Assembly: GCA_965229705.1 (NCBI GenBank)
Contig: OZ245922.1
Span: forward strand, 240,001 to 272,000
DNA: 32,000 nucleotides
Direction: 5' to 3'
From: Candidatus Saccharimonadota bacterium
GTDB lineage: Bacteria > Patescibacteriota > Gracilibacteria > BD1-5 > UBA6164
Each line of letters starts with the position of its first letter. The first letter of the stretch is position 1. Below, piece by piece: positions 7,739 to 30,973 of the stretch. The position numbers and the translations under genes are program-made. The notes under the pieces are model-generated. The model saw nothing but the letters and a program-made list of their open reading frames with translations, had not been told where the DNA came from and did no database searches.

Positions 7739-8518
7739 GTGTTACTCAAAATAGAAATCATCTTACTTTTCGTAAGTTGCCTGTATATTATCTACTTTAC
7801 CCTTGATAGATTAGGAAGTTTTTTGTGGTGAAAACATCAACGCAAGCTCAGAAAATATGCTCGAGCATGAGAGAGTGAACAGTATGGAGAGACGGATATA
7901 AAAACTCCAGAATCAGACATCCAAGAAGAAGATGTATCTGCAAGCTCAGATACAAAGCATACAGCCAGAATACGAGAAATCATCAAGCGCTGCGAAGTGC
8001 ATATCTCACGAAACTCTATTGAGCTTGCGAAAAATCTTATTGTGCAAGGCTTATCGCTTGATAAAAATCATACAAAACTCAACCTGCTACTGGCAGATGT
8101 ATATGAAAAACAAGAGAAATACCAAAACGCAGAGTATATATATAGAGACATGCTTGATGAGTCTCCAGATGATACTTATATATTGTGAAGACTTGGGAAT
8201 ATATACTATATCAGAGGAAAGATAGAAAAATCTCTTTCTTGCTATCAGCGTGCTCTGAAAAAAGACAAAAACAATATTGAGATCCTCGATATACTCGCGC
8301 ATCTTTTGGCAGAACACTGAGACTATGATGCCTGCGTTACAACTGCCTGTGCATTTCTCAAGCAAAAACCACGAGACGGAGAAAAACTCTCTTTGAAATG
8401 ATATGCTCTTGAAAAACTCTGAAAACCATCAGAAGCTCTCACGAATTATAGGCTCGTTTTAGAGGTTGATCCATATAATAAAGAGATACTTTCAAGAGTA
8501 AAAAAACTTGAGTCATAA
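7739..8518 (+). CDS. membrane-anchored TPR-repeat protein
   Basis: The frame of track ORF 7997..8188 extends in code 25 from GTG 7739 to TAA 8516-8518. There is no in-frame ATG after the upstream stop at 7688-7690. N-terminal TM helix LLKIEIILLFVSCLYIIYFTL, then TPR-like repeats (AEYIYRDML, KSLSCYQRALKKD, EALTNYRLVLEVDP). The start codon is uncertain. Confidence 0.6.
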
Positions 8519-8620
8519 GCAGTCTCTGAGAAACAAAAAATTTCTAATCCTCTCTGGATCTATCGAGCCATCTCTCCTTTGAAAAAGGAGAAAAAAAAGA
8601 AGTTTCTCAGAACTTCCTTA
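8517..8620 (+). repeat. R1: ~100-bp inverted-repeat-bounded intergenic element (MITE-like or structured RNA)
   Basis: About 90% identical to 30869..30973. Ends TCTGAGAAAC (8525-8534) and GTTTCTCAGA (8602-8611) are perfect inverted repeats inside a ~19-bp imperfect TIR. Internal hairpins at 8556-8569 and 8573-8591. The 5' end abuts the TAA of the TPR gene. Confidence 0.8.
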
Positions 8621-8726
8621 ACAAGTTTTTTACACCCGAGGAAGTTTTTGACAGAAAAAAAAAGATGCAGTTGAGATGTCTGTATTTTTTTTTACTCTCA
8701 GTGCATATTTTATACCTTTTTACAAT

Positions 8727-10183: not shown

Positions 10184-10387
10184 ATGACTTGGAAAGACGC
10201 ATTTTTCGACGCAGTAGAACACGAGAAACAACCTATGAATCAGGCAACATATTGGATTATATTTCTTTCTTGTAGTTTGATTTTTGTATTTCTGGTAGTA
10301 TCACAAGCAGCGCAACAGTCATCAGCTCTGATAGCACAAAATCCAGAGATTGTTGAATGATCTTGGCTCATAAACGGAGTTCTTTAA
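10184..10387 (+). CDS. hypothetical small membrane protein (67 aa)
   Basis: ATG 10184 (MTWKDAFF...), one TM helix (YWIIFLSCSLIFVFLVV), TGA 10358-10360 read as Gly, TAA 10385-10387. Confidence 0.45.
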
Positions 10388-10390
10388 AAA

Positions 10391-10622
10391 AAACTTTGAG
10401 AAATGAGGTACTCTCGTATATAAGAGACCGGTCTCGAAAACGTAGAAATCAATCCGTTCTGGTTCTATCGAACCATATCTCCTTTCAAAAAAAGAGACAA
10501 ATCTATCTTCCCCTCCCTTACTAAGGGAGGGGCTAGGGGAGGGGTGTATATTTTAGAGATGACTTGCTAGAGTCAGAGTAGATGAGAGATTCTTTGTACT
10601 TCTCAGAAATTCTCTGAGGAAG
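10391..10622 (+). repeat. R2: long composite member of the same element family in the valS leader
   Basis: Left end CTTTGAGAAAT (10394-10404). Palindrome module (10424-10435), hairpin module GGTTCTATCGAACC..TCTCCTTTCAAAAAAAGAGA (10461-10497), GC-rich hairpin/G-tract (10510-10544) and a degenerate right end CTTCTCAGAAA (10599-10609). Confidence 0.6.
10510..10544 (+). other. GC-rich hairpin overlapping a four-G-tract (G-quadruplex-type) motif
   Basis: CCCCTCCCTT (10510-10519), loop ACT, AAGGGAGGGG (10523-10532): a 10-bp stem. GGGAGGGGCTAGGGGAGGGG (10525-10544) has four G-runs of at least 3 separated by 1-3 nt. Confidence 0.7.
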
Positions 10623-22666: not shown

Positions 22667-23182
22667 CTAGAGCGAAAGAGGACGAGTTTGTAGGAAGTTT
22701 CTTTCAGTTTGTGTATCATTATAATAGGCGTTATAGATATTTATGATGGTAGGAGTTTGCTCGATTTGTATAAAGGGAAGTCTGAGAATCTCATCTCCAG
22801 ATCGAAATGCTCTCATCTGGTCATAGCTGAGTGATATACTGATGATTCATGCTTGCTCTGAGATATAGAGGGCATTTTCACGACTAGGTTTTTGTATATC
22901 AAGTACACTGCTATCAAATATAAGTGAAAAAGAAATACTCTCAATATTCTCAAGGTTTTCATATAATTTTAGGGAGATGTTATTTTCATCTCTTTCGGCT
23001 CTGATTCATGAAGTACTTTGTTCAACAATTTGTCATCACAGGATATTTGCTTGAAGATTTTCTTTGAGAGTATCACTCAAGAAAAGGGTATGAATGCAAA
23101 ACGCACATATTAGGCTGACGCTGAATATTCCTACATGAATGAGGAGTTTATGGTATCTGTATTTTGTAAAAAGATCTTTCAT
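22667..23182 (-). CDS. hypothetical membrane-anchored protein (171 aa)
   Basis: ATG 23180-23182 to TAG 22667-22669 with four TGA codons. N-terminal TM helix (LLIHVGIFSVSLICAFCIHTLF). The stop lies 3 nt before the tatD ATG. No family recognised. Confidence 0.5.
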
Positions 23183-23295
23183 AGGTAAGGAGCATGAATA
23201 TAAGAATGTCACTATTTTACTGATGAAGTATGTTATTTCTCATATTTTTTTAAAAATATTTTGACAAATATATTTTTACTAACGTAAATACATAT

Positions 23296-23415
23296 TTAAG
23301 AAATCTCTGAAAAATAGAAAAATCTTGTGTAAGAGACCGGTCTCAAGCCCTTAAAATAGATGACTCGAGACCGGTCTCGAGAAAACAAAAATGACTTTCT
23401 TAGAGCTTCCTTAAG
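23296..23415 (+). repeat. R3: family member whose core is replaced by two GAGACCGGTCTC palindromes
   Basis: Its ends TTAAGAAATCTCTGAAAAAT and CTTTCTTAGAGCTTCCTTAAG match the R1/R4 ends. The core carries palindromes at 23333-23344 and 23364-23381. Lies between uvrC and the next minus-strand gene. Confidence 0.7.
23364..23381. repeat. 18-bp perfect palindrome CTCGAGACCGGTCTCGAG
   Basis: Self-complementary over 18 bp. Its 12-bp core GAGACCGGTCTC recurs at 23333-23344 and 10424-10435, three copies in an AT-rich 32-kb window. Confidence 0.9.
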
Positions 23416-25221
23416 TTACACTAAACCATGGTCCTCAAGGTTTTCTGTAACAGATTTCCCAAGAGTAGATAACAACTCTGATCTTTGGATTTTTTTGAGA
23501 TTTTCGACATTTCAAAACTGTGTAAGAATCTTTTTACGTGTTTTTGGACCAATTCCCGGAAGAGACTCAAGAATATTTTTCTTGAGAGATTTTGATCGAG
23601 AATCTCTATTAAAACTGATAGCAAACCTATGAGCCTCATCACGCAGCATCTGCAAGAGTCGAAGCTCGGAAGAATCTTTCTCCAAGATGAGTGGTTCAGA
23701 ACGTCACGGAAGAAACAATTCTTCTTCTTTTTTCGCGATAGAGACTATTTGTAGAGTAGGAAACTCAACATTATCTGATGCAAAACTCTTTATTACCTCC
23801 ATCACTGCTCAGAGCTGTCATTTTCCTCCATCTATGAGTATTAGATCAGGAGAATTTCAGAGTTTTTCTCGTTCTTTGAGTCGTCGAGACATGATCTCTC
23901 GCATAGAAGCAAAGTCATCAATTTTTCATTCTTCTAGGCTCTTAATACGAAAACGCTTATATTTTTTGGGATTTTTTTTGCCATTTTCTACGACGCTTCG
24001 ACTGGCGACCGTATGATTTCCTGACAGGTGAGAGATATCATTACATTCAAAAACCAGAGTATCATTGATTTCTTTATATCAGAGCATATCTAAGAGCTGA
24101 CTCATAGTTTGCTTACTGGAGTTTTTGATACTGAGAGAATCTCTGTATTTTTTATGAGCGTACTCATATATATTTTTATAGCAGAGCTTGAGGAGTTCAT
24201 ACTTTGTTCAGAGTTCGGGCACTTCATAGTCTATTTCGGTGATAACTTTTTCTATAGCAAAGGGGAGGATAAAACGAAGCTGCTGTTTTTGCTGATTTTC
24301 TACCCATTTTTGTTCTACGATATGTTGCATAATCTCTTCTTTTTTATACCCTAGCTCGTTCTCTAGCTCGTAGTTTTCGTATCCACTAATCTTTCCTTGG
24401 TCTATTTCGATCACTCAGAGATAGTTTTTTTCATACTTTTCTAGTACCTGTAGGACAAAATAATTCCCTTTGACGCCATCTCGCACGAATTGTTTATTTT
24501 CCAGGTTTTCAAGCGCCTCAAGGCTGAGTTTATATTTTTGAGCTTCTTCAAATAACTGCTGCTTTGCTGTTTGATGCATCTTTTCTGTGAGTTCTTTTTT
24601 TACTCTTGAGATATTTCCTCAGAGAAAAAAAGAGATTTCTTGTATTTTTTCTGTATAGATTTTATGAATATGTTCCTCAGAACTTTTGATATTTCCAGCA
24701 AAAAGATATTCATCAAGATTATAGGATCACTTTTTTTTAAAAAAATTATGACTCCCAACACCATAACCATAGATTTTTTTTATGAGTTTGAGGATTTCTG
24801 CCACATGATTTCATGATATATAAGGACCAAAATATTTCCCAGGGGCACTCTGTATTTCGCTTGGAGACTTGCGTGTTCTGATGATTTTAGGATATTTTTC
24901 TTTTGTGATGCAGATATAGAGAAAGTTTTTTCCATCTTTGAGAAGAACATTGTATTTTGGGTGATGTTTTTTGATGAGGTCGTTTTCAAGTATGAGAGAC
25001 TCTGTTTCTGTATTGGTAATGATATATTCAATATTTGAGATATACTGCACCATCTGCTTTTTTGCAAAATTGAGTTTTTGCGTCCCAGAGAAATAGCTAC
25101 TCACTCGCGATTTGAGATTCTTGGATTTTCCGACATATATTATTTTTCCAGACGCATTAAAAAACTGGTATATTCCAGGAGAGTGGGGAAGTGATCGAAG
25201 AATATCTTTAATAGAGTTCAC
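23416..25221 (-). CDS. uvrC: excinuclease ABC subunit C (UvrC)
   Basis: N-terminal GIY-YIG domain (PGIYQFFNASGKIIYVGKSKNLKSRVSSYF). C-terminus LRDEAHRFAISFNR...LPGIGPKTRKKILTQF-G-NVENL (HhH). TAA 23416-23418. There is no in-frame ATG; candidate starts are GTG 25219-25221 (used here) and TTG 25249-25251. Confidence 0.88.
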
Positions 25222-25420
25222 TATGAGATCCAATAAGCAAAAAAATAACAATCATTTCTCACTGTTCCTCAAAAATAGCTCTTATATCTCATGAGACATT
25301 GATACTGTGATATCACTTGAGTTTTCCATGAAGTGCATGATATCATAAATGCTTTTGATAGGGATTGGATAAGAAATCTCTTAACCTCTCTCGAAAAGCA
25401 AGCTGATACTTTATAGGCAT
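25208..25420 (-). CDS. RelE/ParE-superfamily (YafQ-like) toxin of a type II toxin-antitoxin pair
   Basis: 70-aa ORF invisible to the track (four TGA codons): MPIKYQLAFRERLRDFLSNPYQKHL-G-YHALHGKLK-G-YHSINVS-G-DIRAIFEEQ-G-EMIVIFLLIGSHSELY. The H.L.G..kGy.s..v.gD.R.i.....iGsHs.ly pattern is typical of RelE/YafQ toxins. Confidence 0.7.
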
Positions 25421-30841: not shown

Positions 30842-30868
30842 GGAAGTATCTTCCTGTATATGGGCTTT

Positions 30869-30973
30869 TTAGGAAGCTCTGAAAAACAAAAAAATTCTAA
30901 TCCTCTCTGACTCTATCGAGCCATCTCTCCTTTGAAAAAGGAGAGAAAAAGGTGTTTCTCAGAGCTTCCTTAA
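30869..30973 (+). repeat. R4: ~100-bp inverted-repeat-bounded intergenic element
   Basis: TTAGGAAGCTCTGAAAAAC at the left end versus GTTTCTCAGAGCTTCCTTAAC at the right end (17 of 19 positions complementary). Internal hairpins at 30909-30922 and TCTCTCCTT/AAGGAGAGA. Confidence 0.8.

Follow-up and report, generated by a model that had tools for sequence, protein, structure and literature searches.

What is the 119-nt sequence that separates uvrC from the gene downstream of it in a Candidatus Saccharimonadota bacterium (GTDB class Gracilibacteria), and how did it come to share both of its ends with nearby repeats that carry a different interior? Four repeats of this kind (R1 to R4) occur in the window, i.e., the whole 32,000-nt stretch of DNA analyzed here, positions 240,001 to 272,000 of contig OZ245922.1 (G000:C1:240001-272000), and the sequence in question is R3. 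Positions are those of the window, unless they are marked as genome coordinates, which refer to the whole contig. The genome (G000) consists of one contig of 1,006,762 bp with 35% G+C. Since reading TGA as sense lengthened the longest open frame of the window from 217 aa (table 11) to 933 aa, the standard genetic code was rejected; the genome uses code 25 or 4 (TGA = Gly under code 25) and code 25 was adopted. R3 as a whole is probably a composite, non-coding and non-autonomous fossil, in which the shell of an IS5-type miniature inverted-repeat transposable element (MITE) encloses, as its cargo, a doublet of the repetitive extragenic palindromic (REP) type. R3 itself is ordinary, a known kind of element (MITE) in an unusual composite form, inactive in this genome. 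Its parts are as follows.

23296-23414, reverse complement of the type B consensus of the family (see below): R3, 119 nt, non-coding
23296-23299, no strand: left TTAA, presumed 4-bp target-site duplication, in view of the genome-wide TTAA flanks and of insertion sequence (IS) relatives with direct 4-bp duplications
23300-23314, plus: left terminal inverted repeat GAAATCTCTGAAAAA (family consensus GGAAGCTCTGAGAAA), a terminus that also bounds the IS5-family IS at G090:C102:6450-7633
23315-23332, minus: type B "R arm", reverse complement of TTACACAAGATTTTTCTA, present in type B copies only (31-copy alignment)
23333-23344, no strand: palindrome 1, GAGACCGGTCTC, a REP-like site that clusters at and in a gene resembling REP-associated tyrosine transposases (RAYT) in five other genomes of the class
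23345-23366, minus: spacer of 22 nt; read on the other strand, it differs from the family spacer GAGTTACTTATTTCAAGGACTT by 5 mismatches
23367-23378, no strand: palindrome 2, GAGACCGGTCTC, pairing with palindrome 1 as a 12-bp stem (folding)
23379-23394, minus: type B "L arm", reverse complement of TCATTTTTGTTTTCTC (alignment)
23395-23410, minus: right terminal inverted repeat CTTTCTTAGAGCTTCC
23411-23414, no strand: right TTAA, second half of the presumed duplication; the stop codon of uvrC (23416-23418, minus) is 1 nt away

The initial annotation had assigned R-family ends to both sides of R3 and two palindromes, 22 nt apart, to its interior. Both assignments hold: TTAAGAAATCTCTGAAAAAT opens the element on the left at 23296, CTTTCTTAGAGCTTCCTTAA(G) closes it on the right at 23414/15, and the two 12-mers are exact copies of GAGACCGGTCTC. 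This word has three exact matches in the window against 0.01 expected, a number reached in 0 of 100 shuffles. Nor do the similar ends reflect chance matches of a common oligomer, as the 19-mer TTAAGGAAGCTCTGAGAAA was found 44 + 45 times in the genome with up to two mismatches and its reversed control 0 times. Concerning the predicted structure, the core of R3 alone folds at -23 kcal/mol (z -5.4) and the whole element at -45.2 kcal/mol (z -6.75).

Genomic copies were collected by iterated nhmmer and word searches of the whole genome. The family comprises 112 repeat loci amounting to 11.8 kb or 1.2% of the genome. The elements measure 76-170 nt and contain no open reading frame (ORF). About 60 copies, including R1 and R4, are of type A, with the termini, a hairpin core and no palindrome in ~99-103 nt. 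About 31 copies are of type B and have the palindrome core (21 with two palindromes and 10 with one in the alignment), their consensus being TTAA-GGAAGCTCTGAGAAAG-gcatttttgttttctc-PAL-gagttacttatttcaaggactt-PAL-ttacacaagatttttctatttttc-AGAGCTTCC-TTAA, where PAL is the palindrome. R3 is identical to this consensus at 109 of 119 positions and is, by that alignment, a canonical full-length type B member. Chimeric A/B interiors were detected at genome positions 64660, 340781, 648081 and 685064 and in R2, while a third module, the G-rich hairpin CCCTCCCTTnnnAAGGGAGGG, is present in 11 copies (one at 10511-10531), mostly inside lengthened type A copies. The claim that R3 reveals a family of exchangeable modules stands as far as one set of termini, several interiors and chimeras are concerned; it does not stand for the modules themselves, which are not of one system.

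The first of these systems is represented by the outer shell. The shell ends, TTAA|GGAAGCTCTGAGAAAC, match those of full-length IS5-family ISs with 4-bp target duplications in other genomes of the class, which was surveyed through 401 sampled genomes. Genome G090 bears a 1184-bp element (G090:C102:6450-7633) bounded by TTAAGGAACCTCTGAAAAAC and GTTTCTCAGAGGTTCCTTAA, with a single ORF for a 314-aa IS5-family transposase (NF033581, 328 bits for a cut-off of 140; also PF01609 and DUF772). The ends of this IS (TTAAGGAACCTCTGAAAAAC and TTAAGGAACCTCTGAGAAAC) match the consensus of the present genome (TTAAGGAAGCTCTGAGAAAC). Counted together with TTAA, the R-family termini agree at 19 of 20 positions with those of full-length ISs of the IS5 family. 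Homologues of the G090 IS that have similar ends were found in G378, G049, G300, G286 and G018, the last of which belongs to the same family as the present genome, is TGA-recoded and has five IS copies. The 4-bp flanks of these ISs are direct, namely TAAG/TAAG (G286), AATT/AATT (G018) and TTAA/TTAA (G090, G300); TAAG/TAAG is non-palindromic and therefore not part of the inverted repeat. In the present genome, TTAA was found on each single side in 32 of the 52 complete copies and on both sides in 25 of them, at least five abutting pairs of elements share a single TTAA, and a type A copy is flanked by the direct repeat TAAA/TAAA, which is not palindromic. The terminus is multi-copy and patchy across the class (G016, G192, G217, G241, G152, G082, G230, G350, and G379), mostly in MITEs of 90-170 nt with unrelated interiors (G016, G230, G241, G217, and G082 among them).

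Escherichia coli IS5, the reference IS, has the ends GGAAGGTGCGAATAAG and a 4-bp YTAR target duplication. Like MITEs derived from IS5-family ISs, the R elements are short, non-coding and multi-copy, with inverted-repeat ends that start with GGAAG and 4-bp A+T-rich flanks; TTAA fits YTAR, and the full-length ISs with R-family ends encode a DDE transposase of the IS5 family. Because the ends and the 4-bp flanks match those of IS5-family ISs, we consider the R family to be IS5-type MITEs that target TTAA-like sites. The R family differs from IS5-derived MITEs in its host, a Gracilibacteria-type genome of 1.0 Mb with TGA = Gly, in having one subfamily with a REP doublet as its interior, and in having no detected cognate transposase in the genome. 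Searches with PF01609, PF13586, PF13358, and PF13359 found no IS5/IS4, IS630 or PIF-type transposase there, with PF01609, PF13586, and PF13359 giving no match above their cut-offs, and a search with the G090 transposase found nothing. A piggyBac transposase (PF13843) was not found either, a result of little weight, since this model was also silent in all control genomes. The missing cognate enzyme bears on the activity of the family, not on its origin.

An IS with an rve-type transposase was also considered as the parent of the shell and rejected, as its ends (TGTAAGAAACTCTAGGG...) differ and its duplications are 6-7 bp long. It measures ~900 bp (907 bp), encodes a protein of ~280 aa, was recently active and is present in two copies that are 99.8% identical (genome 123047-123953 and 361854-362759), with a third rve locus near genome 941541. 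The copy at genome 361854 interrupts the spacer of a type B element, and this IS is thus younger than the MITE burst.

What is, then, the cargo? With 52 exact copies (0 for the reversed control), GAGACCGGTCTC is the commonest 12-nt palindrome of the genome; words of A+T only come next, none of them with more than 23 copies. Some three quarters of the GAGACCGGTCTC copies are located in type B or chimeric MITEs. The remaining ones are solo or form twins with unrelated spacers of 3-42 nt and have no MITE arms (genome 10287, 71241, 71488, 234150/234204, 697097/697135, and 989323/989358). In total, 13 exact pairs were counted, apart from pairs with one mismatched copy; since the palindrome is perfect, "inverted" and "direct" doublets are not distinguishable. 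Elsewhere in the class, the word is multi-copy in 11 other genomes of the survey belonging to at least five families, with exact counts of 34 in G257, 29 in G136, 21 in G231, 13 in G305, 11 each in G266, G080, and G100, 6 in G248, 4 in G384 and 3 each in G055 and G239 (reversed control 0-1 per genome). It is absent from the three same-genus genomes in which it was counted, and 12 same-genus genomes match R3 weakly at most.

A second transposition system emerged from the surroundings of the palindrome in those genomes. Two copies in G080 bracket a 162-aa ORF with the motifs YHVFNRG, NHFHFLL, and YIHNNP, whose sole NCBIfam match is REP_Tyr_transpos (E-value = 6.7e-16, below the equivalog cut-off) and whose sole PDB match is 4er8, the TnpA-REP of E. 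coli (PMC3479197). RAYT-like homologues were detected in 80 of the 401 genomes, once per genome and two or three times in a few. Exact copies of GAGACCGGTCTC near the gene number 8 in G231 (within 1.4 kb), 7 in G257, 3 each in G080 and G136 and 2 in G100, against 0.02-0.08 expected (Poisson P of 2e-4 to 8e-17), and one further mismatched copy lies near the gene in G080 and in G100. The word is also located in frame within the RAYT-like gene in all five genomes. Other RAYT homologues of the class are surrounded by perfect palindromes of their own, 10-14 nt long (AGTCCGGACT, CATCCCGGGATG, AACCCGGGTT, GAGTTCGAACTC, GCGCCCGGGCGC, and AACCCCGGGGTT), and the gene's own palindrome appears in frame just after the HUH motif, where it reads ETGL (G231 and G257), HPGM (G251), EPGF (G167) or ESGL (G310). 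The RAYT loci in question (L113-L135) are from G310, G251, G167, G048, G152, G066, G324, G236, G380, and G023. Compared by eye, enzyme and palindrome appear to change together within the class.

Because the palindrome clusters at RAYT genes, forms doublets with variable spacers and gives singlets after loss of the centre, we read GAGACCGGTCTC as the putative REP belonging to one variant of the RAYTs, and we compare the twin to the REPINs (REP doublets forming hairpins) of Pseudomonas (PMC3116915; PMC3337134). For REPINs, singlets are reported to form when a doublet loses its centre (PMC3116915; PMC3337134; PMC5581495, the last also treating the groups of RAYTs). The likeness to REP/REPIN-RAYT systems extends to the over-representation of a short palindrome that occurs mostly in hairpin-forming doublets. 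Classical REPs are imperfect palindromes of 20-40 nt with a conserved GTAG or CGTC tag (PMC3733652), whereas GAGACCGGTCTC is a perfect 12-mer with no conserved GTAG/CGTC tag in its flanks across genomes. Unlike in the known systems, it also lies in frame inside genes of relatives, the RAYT gene included, and in the present genome, where no RAYT was found, the doublet would have spread inside a DDE-type MITE. The word would thus be REP-like, but not a classical GTAG/CGTC REP. Neither tblastn searches with 15 RAYTs of the class nor a profile of 14 of these proteins revealed a RAYT in the present genome (no match better than E-value 0.05). As neither an IS5 transposase nor a RAYT was found, the family appears to be orphaned there.

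Twins of GAGACCGGTCTC were also observed in frame within housekeeping genes of other metagenome-assembled genomes labelled Gracilibacteria, specifically in valS, ispDF, leuB, argS, a methyltransferase gene and a GHMP kinase gene (L032, L038, L048, and L076 of CAJQJI01; L050 and L077 of CAMZKS01; L037 of JAYTKZ01). Their spacers are 18-20 nt long, sometimes 43 nt, and all different, and the twin of LeuB is an insert of ~17 residues relative to PDB 6xxy. Additionally, a second G+C-rich palindrome, ACCCCGGGGT, has 18 copies in the genome, often as doublets 15 nt apart (genome 201720/201735, 495796/495811, 501426/501441, 857658/857673, and 982439/982454). Its extended form, AACCCCGGGGTT, flanks the RAYT of G023, which is of the same family as the present genome, and it looks like a second orphan REP-like family.

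How the two systems met can be approached through the shared parts of the type B copies. All of them have the same arms, the same 22-nt spacer, IS5-type termini and TTAA flanks, whereas the twins outside MITEs and in other genomes have a different spacer each. Because arms and spacer are common to type B, unlike in the other twins, amplification of this type is attributed to an IS5-type transposase and not to a RAYT. In the sequence of events that we propose, a DDE transposase of the IS5 type, acting in trans, would have recognized the ~15-16-nt ends GGAAGCTCTGAGAAA(C), inserted the elements at TTAA and duplicated 4 bp. A doublet of GAGACCGGTCTC with its 22-nt spacer, a REPIN-like hairpin of the RAYT-like system that is patchy across the class, would have come to lie in one MITE copy, and the IS5-type machinery would then have amplified the composite of termini, arms, palindrome, spacer and palindrome until some 31 copies existed. 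Deletion between the palindromes may later have produced the one-palindrome copies, and fusion or deletion between neighboring elements the A/B chimeras such as R2. R3 itself would no longer move and would sit neutrally between the uvrC stop codon and the upstream region of the next gene.

The later steps can be followed by comparing R3 with the other repeats of the window, which are as follows.

8515-8621, plus: R1, type A (hairpin core, same termini); its left end overlaps the TAA stop of a TPR gene
10384-10622, plus: R2, composite with degenerate termini; one palindrome at 10424-10435 with stubs of the type B arms, then further modules
10458-10491: type A core of R2, direct
10511-10531: G-rich hairpin of R2
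10555-10578: type A core of R2, inverted
30867-30973, plus: R4, type A copy

R2 had been described as carrying one palindrome whose flanks resemble the outer flanks of the R3 pair and as continuing into the core of R1 and R4. This description proved correct: on the left R2 has GTATATAA and R3 has TTGTGTAA (R3 fits GTRTRTAA at 7 of 8 positions); the right flanks are GAGACCGGTCTCGAAAAC and GAGACCGGTCTCGAGAAAAC, respectively, and the core follows both in direct and in inverted orientation. Loss of the spacer between the palindromes, which had been suspected from R2, recurs in the family, since all ten one-palindrome copies retain both outer arms, the one ahead of palindrome 1 and the one behind palindrome 2, and most of them miss exactly 34 nt, i.e., one palindrome and the spacer. 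Such a loss is what a deletion between the two 12-mers predicts; this mechanism appears probable. When a tree was built from the arms, the one-palindrome copies did not group together in it (9 changes, the mean for shuffled data being 8.6). Its shape is that of a star, as a copying burst would give, its median terminal branch measures 0.13, and it seems too star-like to tell one origin of the one-palindrome copies from several. In the type B copy at genome 723935-724030 one arm is gone, and the 22-nt spacer runs opposite to the arm that remains, which fits recombination at the palindromes, these being both inverted and direct repeats. As for the origin of the twin, fill-in duplication after staggered type IIS cuts was considered and rejected, because no repeat of the outer flanks is seen at either end of the spacer.

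Insertion of R3 can be examined at the locus itself, the genes of which are as follows.

23416-25272, minus: uvrC (code 25), with Pfam UvrC_RNaseH_dom (1.8e-42) and GIY-YIG; upstream of R3 in the direction of transcription
22667-23212, minus: 181-aa conserved hypothetical gene, downstream of R3; tatD comes next

The order of uvrC and the 181-aa gene is kept in 11 same-genus genomes. The spacer between them measures 233 nt in the present genome, 119 of which are R3, and 44-85 nt in five same-genus genomes. This difference is the best local evidence for an insertion at the R3 site, the element being apparently absent from the spacer of the relatives. Furthermore, the type B element was not found in 40 genomes of the same genus, family or order, where the type A hairpins matched only weakly.

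The distribution of the other copies was also studied. R3 had been reported to be inverted relative to its flanking genes, and both neighbors are indeed on the minus strand, but this carries no signal over the genome: between co-directional genes the two orientations occur 7 and 7 times for type B and 17 and 11 times for type A. Orientation relative to transcription is random, which argues against a strand-specific RNA role. Many copies adjoin a stop codon or extend into it. Overall, convergent gene pairs have somewhat more copies between them and divergent pairs fewer, as would be expected if insertions in promoter regions are removed. Identity to the consensus is 76-78% for the termini, 84-91% for the arms, 90% for the spacer and 96-97% for the palindromes. 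With their enzymes not found, their termini most decayed and their orientation random, the copies look like fossils. In genome 493946-501424 type A termini are spaced exactly 1811 bp apart (497701, 499512, and 501323), which is a tandemly repeated gene block with a type A element ending each unit.

Several points weigh against a composite of an IS5-type shell and a REP-type doublet. The palindromes are the best-kept part despite the AT-rich genome, which a neutral fossil would not predict; self-templated repair, a recent loss of the RAYT or use by the host could account for it. The IS5 elements with matching ends were found in other families of the class rather than in the genus of the present genome, and with no RAYT in the genome the REP reading here depends on other genomes. 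Moreover, the word is a perfect 12-mer without the imperfect 20-40-nt stem or the tag of classical REPs. No precise empty R3 site was found in the same-genus genomes, whose UvrC is only 58-70% identical, and the predicted empty-site 28-mer and the type B core pattern gave 0 hits in metagenome contigs. TTAA is self-complementary and at R3 indistinguishable from an extension of the inverted repeat, so that the duplication there is presumed by analogy with the ISs and with the other copies.

The conservation of the palindromes leads to the first alternatives. Rather unlikely, in our view, is a variant in which the DDE-type MITE spread the REPIN independently of the REPIN's own transposase and the host now retains the palindromes at the ends of genes, where they would serve as hairpins or for binding, although host maintenance would explain why these 24 nt are the best conserved of a decaying element. 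We regard as distinctly improbable that the palindrome pair is under selection in the genome for protein binding or for its hairpin structure (examples would be an operator-like site, a stabiliser of transcript ends or a site for the nucleoid or for topology) and that the MITE merely spread it. The 96-97% conservation of the palindromes against 76-91% elsewhere in the element, in a 35% G+C genome where mutation should erode G+C-rich words, and the strong folding of R3 speak for such selection, as do sites in Enterobacterales and actinobacteria, which indicate that proteins reading this word exist. Yet no candidate binding protein was identified in the genome, the copies have no orientation bias, one palindrome is missing from ten copies and mutated palindromes occur in several, and none of the 12 same-genus genomes compared matches R3 more than weakly, the three counted for the palindrome having none. 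Self-templated repair or a recent RAYT loss could explain the conservation as well.

The enterobacterial sites are twins of GAGACCGGTCTC with a 33-nt spacer at ~45 loci of Pantoea, Erwinia and relatives (L022-L091; e.g., L033 5069-5125), located between a divergent gene for a LacI-family regulator and an ABC-transporter operon (solute-binding protein and permease), and they look like a tandem operator. In actinobacterial loci the word lies just downstream of a promoter-like TTGAC...TAGTCT. Use of the word in both groups seems convergent and unrelated to the Gracilibacteria repeat.

An alternative origin would make the whole 119-nt unit a REPIN- or BIME-type element (BIME, bacterial interspersed mosaic element) moved by a Y1 transposase, its likeness to IS5 ends being coincidental. 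The unit is indeed a long hairpin like REPINs, its mosaic combinations resemble BIMEs, and the genome does encode one IS200-type Y1 protein. This origin is very unlikely, though, given the agreement of the termini and TTAA with IS5-family ISs at 19 of 20 positions, the identical type of termini in ~60 type A copies that have no palindrome, and the direct 4-bp flanks, Y1 transposition proceeding without target duplication. The Y1 gene was also considered as the partner of the palindrome alone and rejected, since it belongs to another subfamily (IS200-type, NF033573) and no palindrome with up to three mismatches lies within its 1.2-1.5 kb flanks. This ORF (genome 326720-327325, minus strand; L017 1216-1821) is the sole Y1 gene of the genome and encodes 201 aa with 103 bits for NF033573. 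Past about residue 100 it is unlike usual IS200 proteins, no matching hairpin ends were seen beside it, and it may be damaged.

Could R3 be a functional RNA, i.e., a terminator or attenuator of uvrC or a small RNA, instead of selfish DNA? Its position directly 3' of the uvrC stop codon, the folding of the transcript strand (-45 kcal/mol, z -6.75) and one terminator-like site given by a consensus scan on the minus strand are compatible with such a role. We nevertheless find it highly improbable: the 12-bp stem is followed by UUACACAAG with no U run, no Rfam family reached its gathering score in the window, where a tRNA scan found none as well, orientation relative to transcription is random genome-wide, relatives lack the element in their uvrC spacer, and the family is star-like and decaying with no structure-preserving change evident. 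The reading of the palindrome as a pair of restriction-modification sites of the BsaI/Eco31I type (GGTCTC) instead of a transposase site, suggested by the fact that GAGACCGGTCTC consists of two GGTCTC sites reading outwards from a shared centre, is extremely improbable, as GGTCTC is not avoided (430 occurrences for 416 expected, 326 of them outside palindromes, the fifth-highest of 90 hexamers with the same base composition) and the association with the RAYT gene in five genomes is specific.

Among short intergenic repeats, the composite MITE can be compared with two further groups. The Correia/NEMIS and RUP MITEs are likewise inverted-repeat elements of ~100 nt that insert at A+T-rich targets between genes, often beside stop codons, but they are linked to other IS families and have a TA duplication, whereas the R family has a presumed duplication of 4 bp and an IS5-type parent. 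Modular mosaic repeats between genes are also known as BIMEs in enterobacteria and as BOX elements in Streptococcus pneumoniae. R elements share with them the few recurring modules that vary in number and order, one or two palindromes in this case; unlike them, they draw their modules from two transposition systems, and on the outside they have genuine transposon termini with presumed target duplications.

An IS5 origin of the family is now supported by related genomes, in which full-length IS5 elements share the R-family ends and have direct 4-bp duplications. Added here is the link between the type B cargo and the palindrome of a REP/RAYT-type system that runs through the class Gracilibacteria. 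A search of the accessible literature found no paper linking RAYTs or REPINs to Gracilibacteria or to the candidate phyla radiation, nor was the 12-mer found described as a repeat. Common modules are, as a caution, no proof of a single system: two unrelated selfish systems are nested here, the inner one probably multiplied by the machinery of the outer, and their remnants occupy ~1.2% of a reduced genome of 1.0 Mb. Such nesting provides a concrete mechanism for the origin of mosaic intergenic repeats of the BIME/BOX kind. If the host should indeed keep the palindromes, one transposition system would have cross-mobilized the substrate of another, with domestication to follow, in a minimal genome of the symbiont type.

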